NCBI GenBank assembly: GCA_040752895.1
Contig: JBFMHN010000001.1
Location: 163,213 to 227,212 of the forward strand
Origin: Pseudomonadota bacterium
GTDB lineage: Bacteria > Pseudomonadota > Alphaproteobacteria > GCA-2746255
Direction of reading: 5' to 3'
DNA length: 64,000 nt
Shown: in pieces, positions 4,437-62,336 of the stretch
How the letters are laid out: the number at the start of each line of letters is the position of its first letter
Position numbering within the stretch: position 1 is the stretch's first letter
Notes under the pieces: generated by a model
What the model was told of the DNA's origin: nothing
Seen by the model: only the letters and a program-made list of their open reading frames with translations
The model's database searches: none
Program-made: the position numbers and the translations under genes

Positions 4437-4916
4437 CTACTTGCGGGGCTTGCGCCCGCGCCTTGCCATTCCTTTACGGCCCAGGCCGATCTTCTTGGCG
4501 AAGTCGGAGCGCTGGATGGCATAGTTCGGCGCCACCATCGGGTAGTCTGCCGCGAGGCCCCACTTTGCGCGGTATTGCTCCGGCATCATGCCGTAGGCTG
4601 TGCGCAGATGCCGTTTCAGCATCTTCAGTTTCTTGCCGTCCTCCAGACAAATGATGTAATCCGGCGTCACCGATTTGCGGATCGGCACGAAGGGACGGGG
4701 CGGGGCGGTGTCCCGCGCGCTGGCGGCGCCAAGCGAATCGAGCGACCGGTATACCGTCTGGATGAGTTCGGGAATTTGCCCGGCGCTGAGGTTATTGAAG
4801 CCGACATAGGCCGCGACGATCTCCGTCGCCATGCGCAGCAACTCTGTCCTTGGCGCTTTCTCGGCGGAGGTGCCGGCGACCGTCTTTCCGAAGGTGTTTT
4901 CCAGAATCTGTTTCAA
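4437..4916 (-). CDS. mucR: MucR/Ros-family zinc-finger transcriptional regulator
   Basis: 159 aa, Ros/MucR-like throughout (...PDYIICLEDGKKLKMLKRHLRTAYGMMPEQYRAKWGL...). It is followed upstream by a strongly AT-rich region. Confidence 0.8.
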   Translation of the reverse strand: MKQILENTFGKTVAGTSAEKAPRTELLRMATEIVAAYVGFNNLSAGQIPELIQTVYRSLDSLGAASARDTAPPRPFVPIRKSVTPDYIICLEDGKKLKMLKRHLRTAYGMMPEQYRAKWGLAADYPMVAPNYAIQRSDFAKKIGLGRKGMARRGRKPRK

Positions 4917-5105
4917 GCCGTCTCGTCACCCGCTTTGTTAGATATAAGGATGTATAGTATGGTAAATGTTACAATATAATAAAGTAAATAAATAGCTAAA
5001 CCCTTAAAACAATGAAAAAATTATACGATTTTCGATCATTCCCCTTGGCGCGTCCCTCTTTTCTCTCGCAGAAACCTATTTGTTAGATTTTATTGATTCG
5101 TCCTC
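4917..5105. promoter_or_regulatory. AT-rich divergent promoter region between mucR and rpiB
   Basis: About 190 bp of markedly low GC (tatagtatggtaaatgttacaatataataaagtaaataaatagctaaa...) in a genome that is otherwise about 63% GC. Confidence 0.4.
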
Positions 5106-5225
5106 GAATTGACTTTAGGGGAAAGCCGTCGTTTTCTGCCAATGACAGGGGCGGCGGGCTGGTATGGGCACACGACATATGGTAGTTTTTCGTCCTTTCC
5201 ACTCAAGTGCTGCCCGTTTCCGGCG

Positions 5226-38919: not shown

Positions 38920-39099
38920 GCGATCAACACTGGCCGGCGTTTCCCTTGCGCCTAGAAGTATCCTATGGGGAATGAAATAAGATGAAGCGTCTCTTCATCC
39001 TGGACGGTGCCCGCCGCAGTACCATGGATGAACTGGCGGTGGAAACACTTGCCGCCAATAAGGTTCTGGTGTTCTGATGCTTACAACGGAGGCATCCGG

Positions 39100-39219
39100 A
39101 TGATGAACGGCATGGAGGGAATGGGGTGGGGCATGGGCTTGATTGGCATATTAGTGGCCGCTCTTCTCGTCCTTGGAATCGCGGCGCTCGTAAAATATCT
39201 CCTTGGGAGCCGCGAATGA
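39100..39219 (+). CDS. 39-aa Met/Gly-rich single-TM peptide
   Basis: Strong RBS AACGGAGG 7 nt before the ATG at 39100. Sequence MMNGMEGMGWGMGLIGILVAALLVLGIAALVKYLLGSRE. Confidence 0.45.
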   Translation: MMNGMEGMGWGMGLIGILVAALLVLGIAALVKYLLGSRE

Positions 39220-39286
39220 CGAGTGGGACGGCAGAGAAAGAATGAACGCACGTTACCATCGGAATGTTGCATGGAGAGCATCTGTC

Positions 39287-39826
39287 ATGGGTAGAGCACC
39301 GTTAACCGTTAAACGCCTGATTGTGGTGGGCGTCGCCGTCGCCGCGGCCGTGGCGACACTCTTAGCAAATGACCCGTCCTACGCCCAAGGACGAGGCGGA
39401 GCGGATAAGGCGCAGGGCAAATCGGATGGCGTCAAGGCCCCTTCGGAGAAGCGGCCTGACTTCTCTGGCCGGCCTGAATGGGCAACCAAGCCCGAAGATC
39501 CGAAAGCCCTTAAAGAGCAACGCCGGGAACAAGCCAAGGAGCGACGCAAGGCCGTTAAGGACGAGCTTGAAAAGGAAGATTCGAAAGCCCTTAAGGAGCA
39601 AGGCCGGGAACAAGCCAAGGAGCGACGCAAGGCCGTTAAGGACGAGCTTGAAAAGGAAGATTCGAAAGCCCTTAAGGAGCAAGGCCGGGAACAAGCCAAG
39701 GAACGACGCAAGGCCGTTAAGGACGAGCTTGAAAAGGAAGATTCGAAAGCCCTTAAGGAGCAAGGCCGGGAACAAGCCAAGGAACGACGCAAGGCCGTTA
39801 AGGACGAGCTTGAAAAGTCGGACTAG
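39287..39826 (+). CDS. Secreted charged tandem-repeat protein
   Basis: Signal peptide MGRAPLTVKRLIVVGVAVAAAVATLLA, then about 4.5 copies of the 23-aa unit ALKEQGREQAKERRKAVKDELEKEDSK. Confidence 0.55.
   Translation: MGRAPLTVKRLIVVGVAVAAAVATLLANDPSYAQGRGGADKAQGKSDGVKAPSEKRPDFSGRPEWATKPEDPKALKEQRREQAKERRKAVKDELEKEDSKALKEQGREQAKERRKAVKDELEKEDSKALKEQGREQAKERRKAVKDELEKEDSKALKEQGREQAKERRKAVKDELEKSD
39503..39810 (+). repeat. 69-bp in-frame tandem repeat, about 4.5 copies
   Basis: Near-identical 69-nt units (cccttaaggagcaaggccgggaacaagccaaggagcgacgcaaggccgttaaggacgagcttgaaaaggaagattcgaaag). The first copy has diverged (aaagagcaacgc). Confidence 0.8.
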
Positions 39827-39852
39827 ACCAGGTCCGGCCCCTGCTTTTCTTT

Positions 39853-41538
39853 CTAAGCGGGCATTTCCTCGTAGCCGACGACCCGTTCGAAATCCCGTTG
39901 CAACAGCGGTTCCGTGTCGAGGAGCTGGCTAGCGGCGTCGAAGTCGAGGGTGCGCCGGATGAAGCGTTTCGCGAGGCAGGCTTTTCTTCCGTCTTTCTTT
40001 TCGGCGAGATCGGCAGCCGCCTCTTCCAGCAGCAAGCACGCGGCGAGCAAGACCGCCATGCGGTCCATCAGGCGCCGCGCGATCCGCGAGGCAACTTCCG
40101 GGCTTTTGGTGGCCTGTCGGACGCCATCCGCGCAGAGGGCAAGCGCGCTCCGCAAAGGCTTGGCGCATTCTTCTTCCAGGGGGCTCTTGACCCCACCCAG
40201 GACGCCTTCGATGCGCGCCATGAACGCGCCGAAGCCTTCGCCGTTCCCCGCGACCAGTCGCAGCACCTCGAGCGCCTGAATGTTCGCCGTTCCCTCCCAC
40301 ACGGTAAGCACCTGGGCGTCCCGGAGAAGCCTGGGCGTCACGTAGTCTTCCGTGTAGCCGACGCCGCCCAGAACCTCGATCGCGCTGCTCGCGGCGCGGA
40401 TCGCCTTCTCCGCCGTCCAGTATTTTGCCAGCGCCGTCGTCAGCCGCCGCCAGGGAAGTCGTTTGGCGTTCTTCTCCGATTCATCAAACGCGACCGCGGC
40501 CTCGAAGGCGAGGGTGAGGGAGGCCTCGGCGTTCATCTGGAGATCGAGCAGCACGCTCTGCACCATGGGAAAGGCCAGGAGGATTTTTCCGAAGGCCTGG
40601 CGATGGGAGGCGTAGGCGATCGCCTCCAGGAAGGCCCGTCGGCCGACGGCGGCGGCGGCGAACGCGTTGTGGACGCGGCTGTAATCGAGCGCTTCGAGCA
40701 TGAGCCGCAAGCCCCTGGGCGGCGGGCTCACCTCGAAGGCGAACGCCCCTTCGAGTTCGATCTCGCCGGAAGCAAGCCCGCGCGTGCCGAGCTTCGTCTT
40801 CAGCCGCCGAATGCGGTAGCGGTTCGGGCTTCCATCCGCCAGTGCCTTCGGCACCAGGTAAAGACCGAGGCCTTCCGTCCCTCCCGGTGCTTCTTCCGGC
40901 CTTGCGGTCGCCAGCGCCACATCTGAATCCGGGTTGCTCGCAAACCATTTGAAGCCGGTAAGCCGGAAATGTTCGCCATCTCGTTTCGCAACCGTAGCCG
41001 TTGCGGCAAGGTCGCTTCCGCCGTCGAGCTCGGTCGCCCATGTGCCGCCGGTCAGCGCCTTTCCGTCCAGCCGGAGGAGTCCTTCGAGATAGTGCTTCGC
41101 CGCGGCTTTTTCGGGAAGCTTACCGAGGATATAGGCCACGGCGCCGGTGAGCGTCGCCGGGCAGTGGATAGAGATATCCGCCTGCGACAGCAGATATCCC
41201 ATGAGGAAACTCATGAGAAAAGGCTCCGCCTTCGGTCCGAAGTTTAGGCCCACGATGCCCCGCGCATAAACGTCGCGGTGGATTTCCGCGTAAAGCGGGT
41301 TGTGGCGGACGCGGTTCGTGAGCCGGCCGAAGCGGTCGTGGGCTTCGAGCACGGGGGGCGCGAAGCGGTCCGTGTATTCCGCCTCGCAGTCTACGTCGCT
41401 TCCGACCCAGGCGCCGAAGGCGTGGAGTCTTTCCCCGTTCCGCGCAAGAAGGTCGGGCGCGCGGCGAGCAAGCAGCGTCTTCAGGTTTGGATCTACCGCG
41501 AAGAAATTCTGGCCTCGGGTTTCTTGCTGGTAGCGCAT
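39853..41538 (-). CDS. AidB-like large acyl-CoA dehydrogenase family protein
   Basis: 561 aa. ACAD fold with an extended N-terminus (...YTEDYVTPRLLRDAQVLTVWEGTANIQALEV...). Lies 21 nt downstream of the amidase gene. Confidence 0.7.
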   Translation of the reverse strand: MRYQQETRGQNFFAVDPNLKTLLARRAPDLLARNGERLHAFGAWVGSDVDCEAEYTDRFAPPVLEAHDRFGRLTNRVRHNPLYAEIHRDVYARGIVGLNFGPKAEPFLMSFLMGYLLSQADISIHCPATLTGAVAYILGKLPEKAAAKHYLEGLLRLDGKALTGGTWATELDGGSDLAATATVAKRDGEHFRLTGFKWFASNPDSDVALATARPEEAPGGTEGLGLYLVPKALADGSPNRYRIRRLKTKLGTRGLASGEIELEGAFAFEVSPPPRGLRLMLEALDYSRVHNAFAAAAVGRRAFLEAIAYASHRQAFGKILLAFPMVQSVLLDLQMNAEASLTLAFEAAVAFDESEKNAKRLPWRRLTTALAKYWTAEKAIRAASSAIEVLGGVGYTEDYVTPRLLRDAQVLTVWEGTANIQALEVLRLVAGNGEGFGAFMARIEGVLGGVKSPLEEECAKPLRSALALCADGVRQATKSPEVASRIARRLMDRMAVLLAACLLLEEAAADLAEKKDGRKACLAKRFIRRTLDFDAASQLLDTEPLLQRDFERVVGYEEMPA

Positions 41539-41559
41539 GGGCGGAACTCTTTTGCAACC

Positions 41560-42369
41560 CTACTTCACGGGTGCGCGCTCTTTGGCGATCGCTAGGATTC
41601 GCTCGTCGTCTTCCCAGACGAGAGACGTGTAATCGAAGCCATGTTCGATCGTCGGTTTTACAATCTGAAAATAGGGCGAAAGGTCGAAGTCGCGCGGCGC
41701 GAACAGGCTGTGATGCCGGATATGCAGAATATCGCGCGCGAAGTATCCGCCCTGCCGATGGGAATAAACCCAGTCCGTACAGACGATGGGGAGGATCGGG
41801 TAGCGCACCTCTTGGAAGGCGCGTGCGATCAGGGTCGAGCAGATGGCCCGCGTCGGGTCGCCGCTGCCCAGCGCCAGCATTCGCCGCCGCCAGCGGACCG
41901 GCACCGGCGGCGTCGGCCACAGATAGCGCAAGAGGTCAATGACGTTCTTTAGGTCGTATGCATGCCCCAGATTGGCAAGGGCAGATTCGATGACGCGCCT
42001 GCAATCGGCTTCGCTCAACCCGATCGGGCGGCAGATTCGCGTATTCAATTCCCCATATTTCGAGATTGGCACGGCGGTGACACCATGCTTGAGGTCCGCT
42101 TCGATCAGCGTTTTTGGTTCTTCGTTGTTGCGGGGTGGACCCAGCGCTTCGCCGATATAAAGTGCGGCGTGCGACCAGGTGGATTGCGTGAGATATTTTA
42201 TCGCAACGCTTAAGCGCTGGTTCCCCTCGACGAGAAGAATATCGCCGGGCCTTAAGGTCGCCTGCAGCTTCTCGATCGGAGTGACGGAAAAGGGTTCGTA
42301 TTTGCGCAACGGCTGCGCAAGGTAGTCGGCGAGGACTTTGCCGATTTTCTCGACCAGGCGATTGAGCAT
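41560..42369 (-). CDS. Permuted papain-fold amidase, YiiX/C92 (DUF830) family
   Basis: PGDILLVEGNQRLSVAIKYLTQSTWSHAALYIG and later ...RAICSTLIARAF. The His-before-Cys order and motifs parallel E. coli YiiX (GDIIFQ...SHTGM...YCSEVVWKVY). No signal peptide. Confidence 0.6.
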   Translation of the reverse strand: MLNRLVEKIGKVLADYLAQPLRKYEPFSVTPIEKLQATLRPGDILLVEGNQRLSVAIKYLTQSTWSHAALYIGEALGPPRNNEEPKTLIEADLKHGVTAVPISKYGELNTRICRPIGLSEADCRRVIESALANLGHAYDLKNVIDLLRYLWPTPPVPVRWRRRMLALGSGDPTRAICSTLIARAFQEVRYPILPIVCTDWVYSHRQGGYFARDILHIRHHSLFAPRDFDLSPYFQIVKPTIEHGFDYTSLVWEDDERILAIAKERAPVK

Positions 42370-42437
42370 GGCGCTCGATCCTTAAGGCTTTGGCCGACCC
42401 TCTCCAAAGACCGCCAGCATAACGTGCTTTGAGCGCC

Positions 42438-44393
42438 TTACGCGACTCCGGCAAGCGCCGAAACGGGCATGGCTTTCTCCCTCGTCTCGCGTAGCGTAAG
42501 GCGTTCGACCGCCGCTTCCAGAATCATGCGCAAAAGATCCGCATAGCGAATCCCGCCGAATTCCGCCATCAGGTTGAGTTTTCCGTCCCAGCACCAGCCG
42601 GGATTCGGGTTTACTTCCAAGAGCTTGATCGTGCCGTGCGCGTCGGCGCGGAAGTCGAAGCGGGCGTAGTCCCGGCAGCCCAAACGCTCGAAAAGTTGCA
42701 TCGAAGCATCGACGATCAACCGCGCCTTTTCCGGTTTGAGTTTTGCCTCTTGGTAGCGAATATCCTTCCAGTAGGGCGAATCGGGAAGCCACTTCGATTC
42801 GTAACCAAGGATACGCGGCAGGTTTGGATCGAGGCGGCTATAATCGACTTCGAGAACGGGAAGTGCCTGCAACTCCTGCCCGCTGTTGCCGATGATGCCG
42901 ACGCTGTATTCCGACCCGGTAAGGAACTCCTGGGCGAGAACCGAACGGCCGGGCAGCGTTTCCTTGAGGCGTATGAGATAGGAGACAAGCTGTTCCGGCG
43001 TATAGACGACGGAGTCCTGCACGATGCCGATGCTGCTATCACCCAAATTCGGCTTCAGGATCGCCGGGAAAACAGAAGGCATCGTCGCCGACTGGTCTTC
43101 CGGCCTCATGTAGGTCTCAAGCGGCACCGGGATGTCGAGCGCGGCGGCTATGCATCGGACGAGCGCCTTGTCGTAACACATGGCGAGGCAGGCCGGTCCG
43201 GCACCGGTGTAAGGGATATCGAGCATCTCGAGGAGCGCTGGTACGTGCAGCTCTTGCAGCGCGTCGTTGTTGAAGCCCTCGTCACAGAGATTGAAGACGA
43301 AGTTCGGCTGGTCCTTCTCGAGGTCCACGTGAAGGGTGGCGTGGTTGTTGATGTAGTTGAACGCATATCCATGAAGCTCGGAAAGAGCGTCTTTCAGGCG
43401 CTGAACCGTGTCCATGTCTTCCGGATTGAACTGGCCGGCCTTCTTTACGGAGTCCGGAAGGCGGTGGTCGCCCATCACGACGGTGACTTTTCGGATGATC
43501 TTGCCGCGAATGGGTTTTGGATCTTTTTGCGGCGCGCTCGCTATCAGGAAAAAGCGCTTGGCCATCATGCCGAGATCTTGGTTTTGGGTGGATTCCGCCT
43601 CAAGCGTGGCGTGGGTACGAACGTTCTGGAAGCCAACGCGTTTCAAGACTTCGAGAATGCGCTCCTGGGAATAGAGGCGTTCGGCATAGAATTGGTCGGC
43701 GATAACGCCGCGTTCGGCGTGGACGACGACTTCGCGGGAGACAAGTCGGTCGCCGTCGGCGGTCAACGACCGTTCGCGGCAAACGAAATGGTTGCCGTCA
43801 ATCCATTCCCAGGATCGGCGTTCGAGGTTCTTGCGCATCCAGTCGCCGTCCGTCAGGTCGAGCGCAATCGTGCCGTGGGACCGCAGGGCCTCCTTCACGG
43901 TCTCCAGCACCCGGATGTCGTCTTCTTCGTTGTCGAAGTAGCCGAAGGAATTTCCCATCAGCATGACGGCGTCGAAATTGCCGTTCTTCGAGCGGAAGGT
44001 CCGGGCGTCGCCTTCGTGGAAGGTGACCTTGAGGCTCGTCTTCATCGCCCGTCGGCGGGCGAGGCGAATGAGGTAGCGCGAACGGTCCACACCGACGACG
44101 TTCTCAAAGCCGCGGCGGGCAAGCTCCAGCGAATGCCGGCCTTGGCCGCAGCAGAAATCCAGGATCCGATCGGTCGGGCGCAGGGCCGTTGCCCGCAGCA
44201 GAATGTCCACCTCGCGGATGGTGTTGGCGTCGTTCTCGACGACGTCGCCGTCCGTTCGCAAATAAAGCGAATCAAAAAGGTCGCGCCACCATTCCTGGGG
44301 AAGGTGGCTGGCTAGGTCGGCCACCGGGCCGAGAAAGGCCCTGGACCGTGGTTTGGGAGAATTGGCTTTCGTGGAGGCAGTCGGTTTCGTCAT
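42438..44393 (-). CDS. Fusion protein: class I SAM-dependent methyltransferase (N-terminal) plus D-Ala-D-Ala-ligase-family ATP-grasp enzyme (C-terminal)
   Basis: MTase motif I ILDFCCGQGRHSLELARRGFENVVGVDRS. The C-terminal Ddl-like N-domain and ATP-grasp carry NFVFNLCDEGFNNDALQELHVPALLEMLDIPYTGAGPACLAMCYDKALV, ILKPNLGDSSIGI and KLLEVNPNPGW. Confidence 0.7.
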   Translation of the reverse strand: MTKPTASTKANSPKPRSRAFLGPVADLASHLPQEWWRDLFDSLYLRTDGDVVENDANTIREVDILLRATALRPTDRILDFCCGQGRHSLELARRGFENVVGVDRSRYLIRLARRRAMKTSLKVTFHEGDARTFRSKNGNFDAVMLMGNSFGYFDNEEDDIRVLETVKEALRSHGTIALDLTDGDWMRKNLERRSWEWIDGNHFVCRERSLTADGDRLVSREVVVHAERGVIADQFYAERLYSQERILEVLKRVGFQNVRTHATLEAESTQNQDLGMMAKRFFLIASAPQKDPKPIRGKIIRKVTVVMGDHRLPDSVKKAGQFNPEDMDTVQRLKDALSELHGYAFNYINNHATLHVDLEKDQPNFVFNLCDEGFNNDALQELHVPALLEMLDIPYTGAGPACLAMCYDKALVRCIAAALDIPVPLETYMRPEDQSATMPSVFPAILKPNLGDSSIGIVQDSVVYTPEQLVSYLIRLKETLPGRSVLAQEFLTGSEYSVGIIGNSGQELQALPVLEVDYSRLDPNLPRILGYESKWLPDSPYWKDIRYQEAKLKPEKARLIVDASMQLFERLGCRDYARFDFRADAHGTIKLLEVNPNPGWCWDGKLNLMAEFGGIRYADLLRMILEAAVERLTLRETREKAMPVSALAGVA

Positions 44394-44399
44394 GGGTCA

Positions 44400-44716
44400 G
44401 GTATAGCCGTGGAAAGTTGGATTGTGGGCCAGCGGGGTGTTCGCCAAGAGTAAGATCATTTAGCCAATCGCGTAAGTACGCCAACCTTCGTCAAAGTCAA
44501 TAGGGAACCTTGCAGCTTCCGTTTCTCCAGGTTGTCCGACACTTTTTTTCCAGCCGCCTCGGCCGGGATAGGGGCGCAATTTGAACCGTAATTCTATCAA
44601 ATAATATTCGCTATTTTAAAATAAAAAATAATAATAAATCATAAATCGTAAGCATAGTTTAAATATTGATTAACATGATTACTGTAGCCTGATTTCGGGT
44701 TTTGGAGGAACAGGCG
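44400..44716. promoter_or_regulatory. AT-rich divergent promoter island
   Basis: 44570-44700 is extremely AT-rich (ataatattcgctattttaaaataaaaaataataataaatcataaatcg...). It is flanked by the methyltransferase-ATP-grasp gene on the minus strand and a small secreted-protein gene on the plus strand. Confidence 0.4.
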
Positions 44717-45031
44717 ATGCAATCCATTATGGATCGGAAAAGTTTCCGCGTTGTCCGAGCTTTCCTGTTGGGGCTGGCATTTGCGGTTGTGATTACACTG
44801 GGGGATGTTCCTTTCGCCTCCGGGAAGCTGGACCCCCTGTGGTCGTTCGGCTTGAACCAAATGGAGGTTGCGCCGGCGCAAATGGGGCCTTCGGCGACGT
44901 CGCCGGAAAAACGCCAGCCGGCTTTTGCCGGGCGACCGCCGGCGTTCGAGGGGGATGCGGAGGTCCAAGCGCGTGCGCGCCGGCTGATGACCCTGCTGGT
45001 AATCGCTTTTTTGCAAGAGGCGGGTCATTAG
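44717..45031 (+). CDS. Small hypothetical secreted or membrane protein
   Basis: Perfect RBS GGAGGAA 6 nt upstream of the ATG at 44717. N-terminal signal-like MQSIMDRKSFRVVRAFLLGLAFAVVITLG. Confidence 0.4.
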   Translation: MQSIMDRKSFRVVRAFLLGLAFAVVITLGDVPFASGKLDPLWSFGLNQMEVAPAQMGPSATSPEKRQPAFAGRPPAFEGDAEVQARARRLMTLLVIAFLQEAGH

Positions 45032-45040
45032 ACCTCCGGC

Positions 45041-45874
45041 CTAGCTCGCCTCGCGCTGGATCCGTTCCGCGAAGTCGCGGAGATAGCAAAGCCCCTGGAT
45101 GGCGCGCGAGCCATACCAGGAAGTCATCTCGCCATCGATCCGGGCAAGCCTGACCCCTTCGCAGGCAAACCGTGCCCGGAAGGCTTCTACGTCCGCGGGT
45201 GTGAAGGCGTAAGGCTCGCTTGGGAAAAGAACAAGGTCGGTCTCCTTCAGGCAAACCCTGCTGATTTCGATGGTGGGGTAGCGTTCCGGTCCTTCGTTGC
45301 CGACCGTTTGCCAGTGGAGAAGGGCCAGGGTTGCCGCGATATAGGTGTCGCGGGCGACCGTCATCCAGGGGTCCTGCCAGATGAGGTAAAGAACCTTTCG
45401 GTTTGGCCAGTCTTCGGCCGCCGCCGCCAGTTCCGCATAGGCTTCGAGGAAGCGGGCGGACAACCTTTCCGCTTCCGCCTCCCGGTCGAAAAGGCTTCCC
45501 ATCAGGCGATAGAGAGGAAGGTTGTCGAGGGGCGCAAGCGGGTGCGTCACGATTACCTCGATGCCGGCTTCTGCGATCGCCTCCGCCATTGCTCTGGGGT
45601 TTTCATCCACGTTGACGATCGCATGGCTCGGCCGCAGCTCCTGCAAACGTTCCATCCGGATTTTCTTCGTACCGCCAAGGCTCGGCACGCGTGCGACCCC
45701 TTCTTTCGGATGGATGCAGTAATGGGTGCGCCCGACGATATGGTTGCCTAAGCCCAGATCAAACAGCAATTCCGTGACGCTTGGCACCAGCGAAACGATG
45801 CGCGCGTTTCCCTTGGCCGGCGCGTGAATGACGCCGCCGGCGTCCCTCCGGGTTTCTTCGGCCGCTATCGCCAT
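45041..45874 (-). CDS. TroA/BtuF-like periplasmic-binding-fold protein (Peripla_BP_2) without a detectable signal peptide
   Basis: ...RIVSLVPSVTELLFDLGLGNHIVGRTHYC...VIVTHP... is the class III SBP fold. ATG at 45874. The N-terminus MAIAAEETRRDAGG is not hydrophobic. Overlaps the GDPD gene by 10 nt. Confidence 0.5.
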   Translation of the reverse strand: MAIAAEETRRDAGGVIHAPAKGNARIVSLVPSVTELLFDLGLGNHIVGRTHYCIHPKEGVARVPSLGGTKKIRMERLQELRPSHAIVNVDENPRAMAEAIAEAGIEVIVTHPLAPLDNLPLYRLMGSLFDREAEAERLSARFLEAYAELAAAAEDWPNRKVLYLIWQDPWMTVARDTYIAATLALLHWQTVGNEGPERYPTIEISRVCLKETDLVLFPSEPYAFTPADVEAFRARFACEGVRLARIDGEMTSWYGSRAIQGLCYLRDFAERIQREAS

Positions 45875-46608
45875 CGCTCCGGCTCCGGGTAGTCCGTGAA
45901 AATGGCGTTGACGCCCCAGCCGCGCAGCACCCTCGCGCGTTCCGGGTCGTTCACGGTGTAGGCGAGTACGGCGTAGCCGCCGGCAAGCAGAAATTCGGTT
46001 TTGGCCTTGGTCAGCAGGTCGGCGTTCGGATGGACGGAAACGCAGCCCGAGGCCCGTTCGGCCAGGACCACCTCGTTCGGCACGTCCCGCACGATGAGGC
46101 CGCGCGGAAAGTCCGGCACGACAAGGGCGGCTTTGCGAAGGATCCGTGGCTGGCTTGCCGAGATCAAGGGCGGTGGTTTCGCGTTTGGCCAGAGATCTTG
46201 GAGAAGGGTGACGACAGCCTCCGCAACGGCTTCTTCTCTCTCCGCTTCGGCCTTGATCTCGACGTTTGCGAACAGGCCTCGCTCGGTGCAAAGGGCGACG
46301 AACGCGGCCAGTGTCGGCACCCGTTCACCGGCGAACTCGGGCGCGAACCAGGCGCCGGCGTCGAGGGCCGCGACCGTTTCGTAGGAGGTTTCGGCGACCT
46401 TGCCGCGGCCGTTCGTCGTTCGATCGAGGGTGGCGTCGTGGAGAAGGACAAGCTCGCCTGTTGCCGTCTGTCGGACGTCCACCTCGACCCAATGTGCGCC
46501 AAGATCGGCGGCGCGGCGAATGGCGGCGAGCGTGTTTTCAGGCGCGCTTCCGCTGGCGCCGCGATGGGCAATCACCGGATTGAGCCAGGGCAGGGGGCCT
46601 TGGGGCAT
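45865..46608 (-). CDS. ugpQ: Glycerophosphodiester phosphodiesterase
   Basis: VIAHRGASGSAPENTLAAIRRAADLGAHWVEVDVRQTATGELVLLHD is the GDPD motif. Confidence 0.8.
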   Translation of the reverse strand: MPQGPLPWLNPVIAHRGASGSAPENTLAAIRRAADLGAHWVEVDVRQTATGELVLLHDATLDRTTNGRGKVAETSYETVAALDAGAWFAPEFAGERVPTLAAFVALCTERGLFANVEIKAEAEREEAVAEAVVTLLQDLWPNAKPPPLISASQPRILRKAALVVPDFPRGLIVRDVPNEVVLAERASGCVSVHPNADLLTKAKTEFLLAGGYAVLAYTVNDPERARVLRGWGVNAIFTDYPEPERWR

Positions 46609-48081: not shown

Positions 48082-49380
48082 TCATGGGGCAGTCCCGCCG
48101 ATCGGGATAGCCGCCAGTGTCGTGCATTCAAGGATCGCCCGCGTGAAAATCGTGTTCTTCAGGTCCGCTCCGCGGAAATCGGCCTGGGTCAGATTCGCGG
48201 CCGTGAAATCGGTCTCGGTAAGACGGGCATCGGTCAACGTTGCCCGGGTAAGGTTGGAAGGCCAAAGCCGCCCGGTTCGTTCGCCCAGCGCGCTCCGGAT
48301 CTCGACCGGGACAAGCCGGGCCTTGGCAAGGTTGGCCCCCTTCAGGTCGGCGCCCGTCAGATTGGCGCCGGCGAGAAGCGCGCCTTTCAGGTCCGCGTTC
48401 CGAAGGTTGGCGTAAGAGAGATCGGCCAGTTCGAAGACGCCACGCCGAAGGTCCGCCCCGGTGAAATTGGTTCCCTTGAGGCTGGCGCCGCTTAGCTTGA
48501 CACCGGCAAGGTTTTGATTGCTGAGATCGAGGCCGTCGAGGATGGCCCGTTTGCCGGTTTTGCCATGGCTTTTGATCCACTGCAGATGGCTCTCAAAAAT
48601 CGACTCGAGCGATCCGGCCCGTTTTGCGAGCGAAGGCGGTAATTTTGCCCCGTGCAGGCCCACGGATCCGAGTATCGTATTCCTGAGATCGGCGGTGTCG
48701 AGGACCGCGTTGGAAAAATCCGCACCCGTCGCATCTGTCTGCCGAAGGGACGCACCGGAGAAATTTCCGCCGGAAAAATTTCCGCCCGTCAGCCCGGCGT
48801 TGGTGAGATTTGCGTCGTTCAACTTGGCGCCCCGCCAGTCCGCGTTTTCGATCTGGGCGTTGACCAGGGTGGCGCCCGTGAAGTCGCCGTCTTTGGCCGA
48901 ACTTCTCCGGAGGTCGGCGCCGGTCAGGTTGGCACCCATCAGCTCGGCCTCGTCCAGATTCGAATCCGAAAGGTCGACAGAAATAGCGATGGCCTTCCAA
49001 TCGTCCGATTCGCCCCAGACGGCGACGCGGCCTTCCCGCAGGTTCGCGCCTACCAGCTTGGCCCGCTTCAAGGTGGCCTTGTGCAGGTTGGCGCCTTGCA
49101 GGTCGGCGCCGGTGAAGTCCGCGTGCACGAGGTTCGCAAGCGAGAGGTCCGCCGTTGCCAGGCGGGCATTCGATAGGTTGGCGCCGTTCAGGTTACTGCG
49201 TTGAAGGATGGCGCCGCTCATTTCGGCCTGGCTCAAATTCGTATAGGAAAGATCCGCGCCGATGAGGTTGAGCCTGGCCAGGTTCGCCTGCTGGCCGCCG
49301 CTCTTGCCCTCGAGCCACCGTTCGTGCTTTCGAAGCAACCTTAAAATATCCTTAGGCAACATGGCCGACTCTCTCGACAA
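48082..49380 (-). CDS. Pentapeptide-repeat protein, paralogue 2
   Basis: 432 aa with the same two-module layout (MLPKDILRLLRKHERWLEGKSGGQQANLARLNLIGADLS and FESHLQWIKSHGKTGKRAILDGLDLS). The start is probably 49362. Confidence 0.75.
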   Translation of the reverse strand: MSRESAMLPKDILRLLRKHERWLEGKSGGQQANLARLNLIGADLSYTNLSQAEMSGAILQRSNLNGANLSNARLATADLSLANLVHADFTGADLQGANLHKATLKRAKLVGANLREGRVAVWGESDDWKAIAISVDLSDSNLDEAELMGANLTGADLRRSSAKDGDFTGATLVNAQIENADWRGAKLNDANLTNAGLTGGNFSGGNFSGASLRQTDATGADFSNAVLDTADLRNTILGSVGLHGAKLPPSLAKRAGSLESIFESHLQWIKSHGKTGKRAILDGLDLSNQNLAGVKLSGASLKGTNFTGADLRRGVFELADLSYANLRNADLKGALLAGANLTGADLKGANLAKARLVPVEIRSALGERTGRLWPSNLTRATLTDARLTETDFTAANLTQADFRGADLKNTIFTRAILECTTLAAIPIGGTAP

Positions 49381-49600
49381 GCGCTTTCGTTGCGCGGAGG
49401 TAATCGCTTTTTTCGAAATGCTATAAGATCAAATTGCCTAAGTATTTCAATAAGTTTCGATTCGGATTCGCCTGAAATTTTGTCAAATTTTGTCTAAAAT
49501 TTTTCCGATCCAGCGCAGCCGCGAGATAGCGGCGCTTTATGTGAAAGCCGGTTCGGTCGTTAAGAAAGATTAGCGAGGTAGGGGAAGGGGCGGCTCTCGG

Positions 49601-60452: not shown

Positions 60453-61907
60453 TTATTTTGACAGCCGAAGTTCGGAAAGATGATTAGCGATCTCCTGGAA
60501 CACCCGCTCAAGGGTCGCAGCATCCGGGGCATAGTGGTAGTAGGGGGCGCCCGGTCCGGAGGCGACGCTCTTCAGCAAAGCCTCTATCGTTCCGCCGCTG
60601 TTTGCGAATTGAATCGTATAGATGATGACGCCGCTTGCCTTGATGTTGTTGGCAAGTTGCAGAAGTCTTGGGTCCATTTGCGTCCCAGCGCCAGTGCCCA
60701 GGCCGAAGACCGCCTTGTAGCCGTCTCCCGAGCCGCCGGTATTCTCGCCATCCGTCAGCAGCACGATCGCCTGCTGGCGGGTGAATGTCGGGTTCGGGTC
60801 CGCTTGAGCGAAGGGTTCCCCCGGCATCAGCGCGCGCCACGCCCAGGCAAGCCCCGCCGGAATGTTTGTCACTCCCGTAGGCGCCGTCAGGGCGTTGATG
60901 GCGTTCAATACCCCGGTTTTTGCGTTCTGCATGGGTGTGATCCCGTGCGTCAGGCATGGCGTGCATTCCGAGAAAGAAACGGCGAGCGTGCAACGTGCGG
61001 AGCCCGGCACCGGCTCGCCTTCCGGGCCGACCGGCTGCCATCCGAACCATTGGACGCCGTTCTTCGTGACTTCATAGAGATCCGGATCCGCGTCGTCGAG
61101 CGCGTTGCCGTTGTGGAGGTAGCGTTGGTAGACGCAGCCTTTCCAGTCCGCCGGTGGGGGGGAAAAAAACGGTACCGGTGAATTGTTTGCGCGGTAAATC
61201 ACCGACTGCGATACGCCGGTCAACGGATTCGTGAAAGGCGTCACCGGCGTCGTCGTGGTCAGCGCGGCGTTGTAGGCCTCGCCATTCCGCATGACGTTCA
61301 CCTTTCCGTTCCATGGCACGAGACCGATCTTTAAAAGGGCCTTCGTTTCATCGGCGCCGAACAAGATGTTGACGAGCGCGGTTGCCGCGTTGCGCGCGGC
61401 CTGAATGCGCGTGCCGCCGCCTGTGGCGCTGCTCGTCATCGAACCGGACATGTCGATGGCAAGAACGACGTCCAGCATCTGGGTCTGGCGCGTCACCTCC
61501 GTCTCGGCCGACACGTTCAGCGTGTTAAAGCCAAAAATGTGCATGAAGGTCGTCGGAATCGTTGCCGCGGCGCTTAAGGTGATTACCTCGTTGTTGGCGT
61601 CGATCGCAAAATTTGGCCCGGTGACGGCGGCGCCGAGATAGCCGGGGGGGAAATTCGCGTTGAAGTACATTTGGATGTCGGCGTCTCGGTTAGCCGAGAA
61701 CATGACCCGGCCGCCGGCCAGAGCCGCAGCATCCAGCGCCCGCGAAAGCCTGGCCTTCACGAGAAAGCCACGCGCCGCGTCGGTCGCGATGCCCAGAAAG
61801 CCGAGGGTCGGAAAGATGGCGGCCGCCAGGAAGATTGCGATGACCCCGCGGCGGTCCACTCCGAAAAGATGGCAACCCCGCTTCAGCCTTTGCCAACACG
61901 CCCGCAT
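60453..61907 (-). CDS. TadG/TadE-like pilus-assembly protein with a vWA domain
   Basis: An N-terminal TadE-like hydrophobic segment (GVIAIFLAAAIFPTLGFLGIATDAARGFLVKARL) and a vWA MIDAS motif (DMSGSM). ATG at 61907. Confidence 0.65.
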   Translation of the reverse strand: MRACWQRLKRGCHLFGVDRRGVIAIFLAAAIFPTLGFLGIATDAARGFLVKARLSRALDAAALAGGRVMFSANRDADIQMYFNANFPPGYLGAAVTGPNFAIDANNEVITLSAAATIPTTFMHIFGFNTLNVSAETEVTRQTQMLDVVLAIDMSGSMTSSATGGGTRIQAARNAATALVNILFGADETKALLKIGLVPWNGKVNVMRNGEAYNAALTTTTPVTPFTNPLTGVSQSVIYRANNSPVPFFSPPPADWKGCVYQRYLHNGNALDDADPDLYEVTKNGVQWFGWQPVGPEGEPVPGSARCTLAVSFSECTPCLTHGITPMQNAKTGVLNAINALTAPTGVTNIPAGLAWAWRALMPGEPFAQADPNPTFTRQQAIVLLTDGENTGGSGDGYKAVFGLGTGAGTQMDPRLLQLANNIKASGVIIYTIQFANSGGTIEALLKSVASGPGAPYYHYAPDAATLERVFQEIANHLSELRLSK

Positions 61908-61949
61908 CGCCGGAACCTCAAGCAAATAATATGGCTGCACTTTAGGCAT

Positions 61950-62150
61950 AAGCTATTAATGGAATCTTAAATCGCTAGGTATCTGTCGATATAATAAATA
62001 TAAAATTTTATAATATTTTTATTTAAAAGTATTTATAAGTTTTATTTATTTTAAATAAAACGCCATTACTATTTAATTCTATTATTTTTACTTTCGGTTA
62101 ATGAATTTATCTTATAAAAATACGCATCGCTCTCAAAAAGGAGGAAAAGA
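61950..62150. promoter_or_regulatory. Very AT-rich promoter region upstream of the flp pilin gene
   Basis: About 200 bp at under 25% GC (ataataaatataaaattttataatatttttatttaaaagtatttataagttttatttattttaaataaaa...) ending in an RBS AAAGGAGGAAAAG before the flp ATG. Confidence 0.5.
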
Positions 62151-62153
62151 GCA

Positions 62154-62336
62154 ATGGGTACGTTACTCAAACTTCTAAAGGATGAATCCGGCGCCACCGC
62201 GATCGAGTACGGCCTGATCGCCGCGCTCGTGTCGGTCGCCGCGATCGGCGCTCTGACCGCGATGGGCGGTTCCCTGAACTCGATGTTCACGGCCGTTTCC
62301 ACCGCGCTCAACAACGCCATTTCACCGCCCGCATAA
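62154..62336 (+). CDS. flp: Flp/Fap type IVb pilin
   Basis: MGTLLKLLKDESGATAIEYGLIAALVSVAAIGALTAMGGSL is the Flp motif (G/ATAIEY). Confidence 0.85.
   Translation: MGTLLKLLKDESGATAIEYGLIAALVSVAAIGALTAMGGSLNSMFTAVSTALNNAISPPA

Follow-up and report, generated by a model that had tools for sequence, protein, structure and literature searches.

Locus organization

We analyzed a 64,000-nucleotide (nt) stretch of an alphaproteobacterial genome (Pseudomonadota bacterium, assembly GCA_040752895.1, contig JBFMHN010000001.1, positions 163,213 to 227,212; here called the window and numbered from its first letter), with a focus on three consecutive minus-strand genes, A, B, and C. An earlier note, written from the sequence without database searches, had read these genes as a self-contained system for modifying and turning over a small molecule or peptide. 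Our results instead single out gene A, a methyltransferase fused to an ATP-grasp ligase, as the unusual member, and the association of A, B, and C as a feature of this lineage. The features at the locus are as follows.

42438 to 44393, minus strand: gene A, 651 amino acids (aa), a fusion of a methyltransferase and a Ddl-type ATP-grasp ligase (open reading frame [ORF] list, Pfam, NCBIfam)
43524 to 44306, minus strand: methyltransferase domain of gene A, about aa 30 to 290, a Rossmann core with a beta-strand cap
42489 to 43496, minus strand: ATP-grasp ligase domain of gene A, about aa 300 to 635
41560 to 42369, minus strand: gene B, 269 aa, predicted cytoplasmic C92 (YiiX/YaeF-like) permuted-papain cysteine hydrolase (PF05708)
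39853 to 41538, minus strand: gene C, 561 aa, AidB/ACDH-11-type flavoenzyme of the acyl-CoA dehydrogenase family, last gene of the minus-strand run
44394 to 44716, no strand: divergent intergenic region of 323 nt, 5' of gene A, with an AT-rich island and a sigma-70-like promoter match
44717 to 45031, plus strand: small divergent gene, 104 aa, with a hydrophobic N terminus (ORF; gene call on the identical contig L081)

The three codirectional ORFs were found where the earlier note had placed them, with gaps of 68 nt between A and B (42370 to 42437) and 21 nt between B and C (41539 to 41559). Pfam likewise confirmed its domain calls for the C92 amidase and the AidB-like flavoenzyme.

Gene A represents a large, widely distributed family of fused proteins

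Gene A is a single uninterrupted ORF. Of the 8000 candidates scored in a protein search with it, 5404 had E values of ≤1e-5. All 120 relatives listed are fused and 624 to 719 aa long; one is identical to A, and the others are 62 to 69% identical to it. In a 40-member alignment of the family, the mean column identity is 68%, and each half contains long stretches of invariant residues. The family extends to eukaryotes: Monosiga brevicollis MONBRDRAFT_25176 is 42% identical to A across 650 aa, and members are also present in chytrid and blastoclad (zoosporic) fungi. The fusion recognized in the earlier note is therefore genuine, as judged by its Pfam domains, the single ORF, and the many full-length relatives. 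An origin by frameshift or misassembly, with two separate genes read as one, is ruled out by the intact ORF and by full-length orthologues up to the eukaryotes.

We scanned one genome per species and found at least 588 stretches encoding A relatives; the best 80 loci, with flanks of up to 8 kb, were analyzed. These loci come from Planctomycetota, Alpha- and Gammaproteobacteria, Nitrospirales, Omnitrophota, Gemmatimonadota, Hydrogenedentota, and Rhodothermales. The top identities to A ignore taxonomy, as an Isosphaeraceae metagenome-assembled genome (MAG) reaches 69% and Gammaproteobacteria and Alphaproteobacteria each reach 68%. In two Nitrospirales MAGs (L038 and L049) and a Hydrogenedentota MAG (L042), 187 nt of noncoding DNA upstream of A are about 90% identical, which reflects either a very recent transfer of the gene together with its promoter or a binning error. 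Taken together, the taxonomy-independent identities and the upstream identity across phyla point to horizontal spread of A under strong constraint. Two possible signs of mobility were rejected: the plasmid database PLSDB lacked the fusion and yielded only ATP-grasp relatives that are about 30% identical, and the GC and third-codon-position GC contents of A and B are unremarkable compared to those of neighboring genes, which gives no indication of recent transfer.

Among the relatives listed, the only names in use are "methyltransferase domain-containing protein" and "D-alanine-D-alanine ligase." No solved structure of a fused methyltransferase/ATP-grasp protein was found, and a full-text literature search on such fusions and related enzymes found no characterized member of the family, in line with the earlier note, whose author recognized no characterized pathway for this architecture. 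Because no NCBIfam model matched A, B, or C at its curated cutoff, the description of all three genes as lacking an assigned function is also fair. The A family is thus large and catalogued, is without a characterized member, and resembles known bifunctional fusions of an ATP-grasp ligase with a tailoring enzyme. Ngg combines an acetyltransferase with an ATP-grasp enzyme and makes N-acetylglutaminylglutamine amide, and GshF combines GshA with a Ddl-like ATP-grasp domain. A is like them in joining, in one polypeptide encoded by a portable gene, a putative peptide-bond-forming ATP-grasp ligase and a second enzyme that would act on the same small molecule. It is unlike them in that the partner domain is an S-adenosylmethionine (SAM) methyltransferase and that sequence kinship is limited to the ATP-grasp superfamily; GshF structures are absent from the PDB matches of the A ligase half. 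Cultured carriers of the gene include Hyphomicrobium zavarzinii ATCC 27496 (L078) and Methylohalomonas lacus HMT 1 (L011).

The ligase half keeps a Ddl-like core with different substrate elements

The C-terminal half of A matches Pfam Dala_Dala_lig_C at aa 441 to 626 (71.3 bits). Residues K447, E489, K534, R578, D580, E593, and N595 are invariant in the 40 aligned family members and have as counterparts K144, E180, K215, R255, D257, E270, and N272 of E. coli DdlB. Based on these residues, the Ddl-like ATP-grasp catalytic core is intact. The substrate-binding elements of Ddl are swapped, with GDxRLPD, W535 (in GYESKW), and NPNPGWCWDGK in their place, each conserved within the fusion family, and NLCDEG is a further substrate-region motif of A that replaces Ddl elements. 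The DdlB elements replaced are E15 in GGxSxEhEVS, Y216 of the omega loop, and the S281/L282 loop. Because these D-alanine-binding elements are replaced, the substrates of A are predicted to be other than a pair of D-alanines, and the ligase almost certainly does not join two D-alanines.

Model scores agree with this prediction. A scored 116.3 bits against the Ddl model NF002378 (cutoff, 243) and 107.3 bits against TIGR01205 (cutoff, 245.65), and all Van models gave ≤65 bits against cutoffs of 495 to 775. Every sequence match of the C-terminal half in the PDB is a Ddl or a Van ligase; A is 24% identical to Ddl/VanA-type ligases and falls below every curated Ddl/Van cutoff. It also differs from them in carrying a methyltransferase, in lacking a cell wall gene context, and in occurring in eukaryotes. 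No mur/fts or van genes lie beside A in the window or in the annotated loci, and none are among the Pfam-typed neighbors of A.

The methyltransferase half is closest to amine N-methyltransferases

The N-terminal half of A matches Pfam Methyltransf_25 at aa 77 to 174 (68.5 bits). Its SAM motif I reads LDFCCGQGRH and is followed by the motifs GNSFGYF and VCRERSL. The top solved relative by sequence is NmbA from Chlorobaculum tepidum (9RI2; E value, 1.3e-20), in a match that covers both the core and the cap. NmbA methylates the cysteinyl alpha-amine of bacillithiol (PMC12719100). Sequence similarity thus places the methyltransferase half of A nearest to NmbA and other amine N-methylases, and both are class I SAM methyltransferases whose active site is covered by a beta-strand cap. 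NmbA is a stand-alone protein of 266 aa that acts on bacillithiol, whereas A is fused to a ligase, and the 29% identity between the two is below the 35 to 95% range by which the NmbA cluster was defined (PMC12719100). A protein of that kind is also expected to occur together with BshA, BshB, and BshC. No bsh genes adjoin A on the same-organism contigs or in four annotated distant genomes. Several of the closest methyltransferase structures are those of the peptide N-terminus enzymes CypM, YunM, and CgnL, and the daptide methyltransferase model scored 74 bits against A.

Two other assignments were rejected. A role in MADS antiphage defense was suggested by a PADLOC mad2 match (74 bits), which covers the Rossmann core only (aa 37 to 193); B and C had no PADLOC match. 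DsyGD-type dimethylsulfoniopropionate synthases, bifunctional enzymes in which a DsyG-type S-methyltransferase is fused to a decarboxylase domain, were rejected because the DsyD domain is PF04115 and not an ATP-grasp domain, and A matched DsyGD of G. sunshinyii with a BLASTP E value of 0.18.

Genes B and C belong to other families with their own contexts

Gene B matches Peptidase_C92 (PF05708) at 35.5 bits (cutoff, 27). Its His67 (in SxWSH) and Cys177 (in ICS) are invariant in the window protein and 69 relatives and occur in the permuted order, His and then Cys. On this basis, B looks like an active cytoplasmic C92 cysteine hydrolase. It shares the permuted His-then-Cys order with YiiX/YaeF and, like them, passes the Pfam C92 threshold, but it has a long conserved C-terminal extension and is not an equivalog of E. 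coli YaeF (NF008552, 24.4 bits against a cutoff of 279). Metagenomes yielded 297 relatives of B, of which 80, 57 to 67% identical, were kept for analysis (loci L084 to L163). The neighbors of this family include an extracytoplasmic function (ECF) sigma factor gene that follows in 21 of the 80 loci, a DUF3379 gene in 13, and a DUF3179 gene upstream in 13 (e.g., L101:7001-8446). This context suggests that elsewhere the C92 family of B belongs to an envelope-stress-type regulon. None of these three partners is present in the window.

Gene C exceeded the cutoffs of all three of its Pfam domains, AidB_N (49.8 bits), Acyl-CoA_dh_M (55.1 bits), and Acyl-CoA_dh_1 (114.5 bits), and its translation shows a VWEGT motif. 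The top PDB matches are ACDH-11 (4y9j; E value, 4e-58), 6sd8, 5ez3, and AidB (3djl; E value, 1e-48). C has the same three-domain acyl-CoA dehydrogenase architecture as AidB and ACDH-11, with an AidB-type N-terminal domain. With 192.9 bits against the AidB equivalog model NF008594 (cutoff, 545), it is considered an AidB paralogue because the score is below the equivalog cutoff. Such a gene is ordinary for a proteobacterial genome.

The A-B-C arrangement is not conserved

Co-occurrence of the genes in other genomes had been set beforehand as the test of the proposed self-contained system, and the proposal failed it. No relative of B or C was detected in the 80 A loci by tblastn (E value, ≤1e-5), by a hidden Markov model of the B family (E value, ≤1), or by phmmer with C; downstream of A, 72 of these loci have at least 1 kb of flank and 59 have at least 3 kb. 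Conversely, neither A nor an acyl-CoA dehydrogenase was present in any of the 80 B-centered metagenome loci, 45 of which have at least 2 kb upstream. The order A-B-C was found only on contigs with an identical A protein, i.e., from the same organism. The arrangement is a lineage-specific juxtaposition that arose by chance or, at most, by recruitment within this lineage.

Gene A typically stands alone. Apart from A itself, no BLAST cluster was found in more than 13 of the 80 loci, the annotated neighbors in four distant genomes have nothing in common, and Pfam typing of the immediate neighbors in the 80 loci showed no dominant family upstream or downstream. The gaps upstream of A are typically 100 to 500 nt, with neighbors in either orientation. 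Gene A is usually monocistronic, self-contained, and portable, with no fixed or obligatory partner. A precursor-peptide gene beside A, as in RiPP tailoring systems of the linaridin, daptide, or graspetide kind, was sought among small ORFs of 18 to 110 aa that lie up to 700 nt upstream or up to 500 nt downstream of A; none was shared beyond close relatives by blastp-short, a search that short divergent peptides may escape. The small-ORF clusters that do occur near A are found in close relatives only, and their conservation extends over several frames, which marks them as noncoding.

Only one kind of neighbor recurs across phyla, a gene for a deacylase of the AstE/AspA family. In four Planctomycetota loci it lies directly downstream of A and codirectional with it, and two gammaproteobacterial loci have it nearby. 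These copies are about 56% identical across phyla and are closest to DoeB, far below its cutoff. A hydrolase of any kind is adjacent to A in about 12 of the 80 loci.

A gene for an Orn/Arg decarboxylase lies downstream of A in one related alphaproteobacterial group (six loci by Pfam, ten by BLAST clustering). We rejected a link to polyamines, since the association is confined to one lineage and the gene lies about 450 to 550 nt from A with a conserved noncoding block of its own; lineage synteny is the most likely explanation. That block, between A and the decarboxylase-like gene, is about 190 nt long and nearly invariant (L072:2020-2210; also in L022, L026, L047, L053, L075, and L077), with variable stretches parting its conserved segments. 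The loci that carry it are alphaproteobacterial, and several are labeled Stellaceae. It had no Rfam match at the gathering score and a weak match to the ar45 small RNA (22.6 bits; E value, 0.011), and it may be the 5' leader of the decarboxylase gene.

Ligases and hydrolases recur together in the wider ATP-grasp clade

When the ATP-grasp half alone was searched against cluster representatives, 520 of them matched at E values of ≤1e-30, and the descriptions that follow are drawn from the 150 listed. The matches listed include stand-alone ligases of about 340 aa, such as P0123, which is 50% identical. Other members are fused differently: a methyltransferase and ATP-grasp domain with a SET domain, an ATP-grasp domain with an S9 prolyl oligopeptidase, and leucine-rich repeats (LRR) with an ATP-grasp domain (in a Lokiarchaeia MAG). 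In Monosiga, the consecutive locus tags MONBRDRAFT_25175 and MONBRDRAFT_25176 place an ATP-grasp/S9 prolyl oligopeptidase fusion next to the A orthologue.

In six of seven loci with a stand-alone ligase (L168 to L174), a Peptidase_S15/PepX_C (CocE/NonD) hydrolase of 670 to 710 aa is convergent to or near the ligase gene. Four of these S15 loci continue from the hydrolase to a conserved protein of 314 to 319 aa, which has no Pfam match and is 63 to 78% identical between loci. By eye, this protein has ATP-grasp-like motifs (example, L173:5001-9171). The stand-alone ligase and the S15 hydrolase look like an uncharacterized ligase/hydrolase module. Given this recurring pairing of a ligase with hydrolases from different families (AstE/AspA, S15, or S9), local recruitment of a C92 hydrolase next to A is conceivable by analogy.

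Transcription signals and AT-rich islands

The AT-rich island at 44570 to 44700, to which the earlier note had drawn attention, has a GC content of 26.7%, compared to a window mean of 61%. It contains a sigma-70-like promoter match on the minus strand (44620 to 44591). Because no terminator-like site was found on the minus strand between or after genes A, B, and C, their cotranscription is plausible from the sequence. DNA upstream of A is alike among close relatives only. We rejected a riboswitch or other known RNA 5' of A, as there was no Rfam match at the gathering score upstream of A in eight loci; an Rfam scan of positions 39000 to 46000 of the window likewise gave no match at E values of ≤1. 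The small plus-strand gene at 44717 to 45031, which had no match in a Pfam search, uses the same AT-rich promoter region, yet it is outside the A-B-C set.

The window has four AT-rich intergenic islands of 33 to 43% GC (4871 to 5122, 44511 to 44762, 49361 to 49542, and 61881 to 62212). Since the island at the A-B-C locus is one of four intergenic islands below 40% GC in 64 kb, it is not distinctive; AT-rich islands are a general trait of promoter regions in this genome and no marker of the locus. The last of them, in which 131 consecutive nt have a GC content of only about 11%, lies just upstream of a short ORF beginning MGTLLKLLKDESGATAIEYG that by eye resembles a Flp-type pilin.

The plus-strand ORF at 39203 to 39826 contains an 81-nt unit in four copies at 98% identity (39494 to 39817). 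The encoded protein (207 aa) had no Pfam match; it has a hydrophobic segment at its N terminus and, from these copies, a repeat of 27 residues rich in K and E.

Interpretation and alternatives

We are far more certain that the trio is not conserved than we are of the chemistry that we propose for gene A. Our preferred reading, which we consider probable, if only just, is that A, B, and C are independent genes that have come to lie side by side and that A is a widespread bifunctional enzyme making an N-methylated, amide-linked metabolite. Judged by conserved residues, both halves of A keep their catalytic machinery, and the fusion is ancient, with conservation over its full length between bacteria and a choanoflagellate. 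The ATP-grasp half would activate a carboxylate as an acyl-phosphate and join it to an amine, so that, like Ddl, it would form an amide or peptide bond. The methyltransferase half would N-methylate a primary (alpha-)amine, either on the substrate or on the product, in the manner of NmbA, CypM, DesVI, and glycine/sarcosine N-methyltransferase. Because the gene works without dedicated neighbors, its substrates would be common metabolites, and the product would be an N-methylated dipeptide-like small molecule. As a more tentative elaboration, which we regard as possible rather than probable, the product may be an undescribed compatible solute or a cofactor- or thiol-like compound, with a hydrolase recruited lineage by lineage (AstE/AspA, S15, S9, and here C92) to recycle it. 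One portable gene would then make it from common precursors in many Planctomycetota and Proteobacteria, in further bacterial phyla, in a choanoflagellate, and in zoosporic fungi.

Several points weigh against this reading. The surveyed loci are at most 69% identical to this A, and a lineage-level operon could exist in closer relatives. The short gaps, the lack of terminator-like sites, and the one promoter-like site would allow a real A-B-C transcript and a local link between the genes. The chemistry assigned to A rests on homology at 24 to 29% identity, and the AlphaFold model leaves the relative orientation of the two domains uncertain (predicted template modeling score [pTM], 0.56). The very high conservation of A and the fusions to SET and LRR domains within the clade could also mean that the substrate is a peptide or protein.

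A local role for the neighboring genes can be framed in two ways. If A, B, and C formed one pathway, A would ligate and methylate, B would hydrolyze the amide, and C would oxidize an acyl-CoA precursor or breakdown product. The codirectional order, the 68- and 21-nt gaps with no intervening terminator-like site, and the single upstream promoter-like site are what such a pathway would show; two independent contigs from this organism also preserve the order, and other lineages place a hydrolase beside a ligase of this clade, an argument by analogy. We nevertheless find this pathway very unlikely, because B and C were never near A and A and C were never near B in the respective 80 loci, the B family has partners of its own (the ECF sigma factor in 21 and DUF3379 in 13 of 80), no surveyed locus held an acyl-CoA dehydrogenase gene, and there is nothing to connect an acyl-CoA substrate with the product of an ATP-grasp ligase or an N-methyltransferase. 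Nothing was found that ties C to A, whereas B might, by analogy, have been recruited locally as a hydrolase of the A product. A and B without C would then form a local synthesis/hydrolysis pair in which C92 replaces the AstE/AspA or S15/S9 hydrolases, a proposal that we hold to be doubtful. In its favor, varying hydrolase families recur beside the ligase clade across lineages, and B is predicted to be cytoplasmic with an intact His/Cys pair. E. coli glutathionylspermidine synthetase/amidase (Gss) couples an ATP-grasp-type ligase to a papain-fold (CHAP) amidase that reverses its reaction, the same logic that the earlier note applied to A and B; in Gss, however, ligase and amidase are fused and, as far as is known, universally linked, while A and B are separate and adjacent in this organism only. 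That single adjacency, the small share of A loci with an adjacent hydrolase (about 12 of 80, with only AstE/AspA recurring across phyla), and the ECF sigma module as the conserved context of B all speak against the pair.

The remaining alternatives concern the substrate of A. Gene A could modify a ribosomal peptide or a protein, adding an amino acid to it or cross-linking it and methylating its N terminus, as the structural neighbors CypM, YunM, and CgnL, which act on peptide N termini, and the 74-bit daptide match would suggest. The fusion of the ligase clade to SET, LRR, and prolyl oligopeptidase domains and the unusually many invariant residues of the A family point the same way. We consider this reading distinctly unlikely, since no small ORF is conserved beside A across lineages, there is no conserved partner gene, and small molecules are the substrates of both Ddl, whose structures are nearest to the ligase half, and NmbA, the closest characterized methyltransferase. 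A SET domain can also methylate a free amino acid, as BurB is reported to do with methionine (PMC12542666). Most improbable of all is that A is a true D-Ala-D-Ala or D-Ala-D-X ligase for cell wall precursors with a methyltransferase attached, even though JGI and some NCBI records give it that name and the PDB matches of its ligase half are all Ddl or Van enzymes. The Ddl models scored 107 to 116 bits against cutoffs of 243 to 246, the DdlB E15 motif, Y216, and S281/L282 loop are replaced, no locus has mur/fts genes near A, and orthologues occur in a choanoflagellate and in fungi, organisms without peptidoglycan. The small-molecule role proposed in the earlier note is therefore weakened in its D-amino-acid or cell wall precursor form, as the Ddl residues are not conserved and the Ddl models score less than half of their cutoffs.

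Significance

The three-gene set is of no importance beyond this organism, and only gene A is unusual. The label "D-alanine-D-alanine ligase" on the A family is contradicted by both the residue and the score tests, and proteins mislabeled in this way can distort cell wall inventories, notably those of Planctomycetota. Cultured carriers of A make the question of its function directly testable. If the chemistry that we propose for A is true, a single widely transferred gene would give many environmental bacteria and some early-branching eukaryotes an unrecognized N-methylated amide metabolite.

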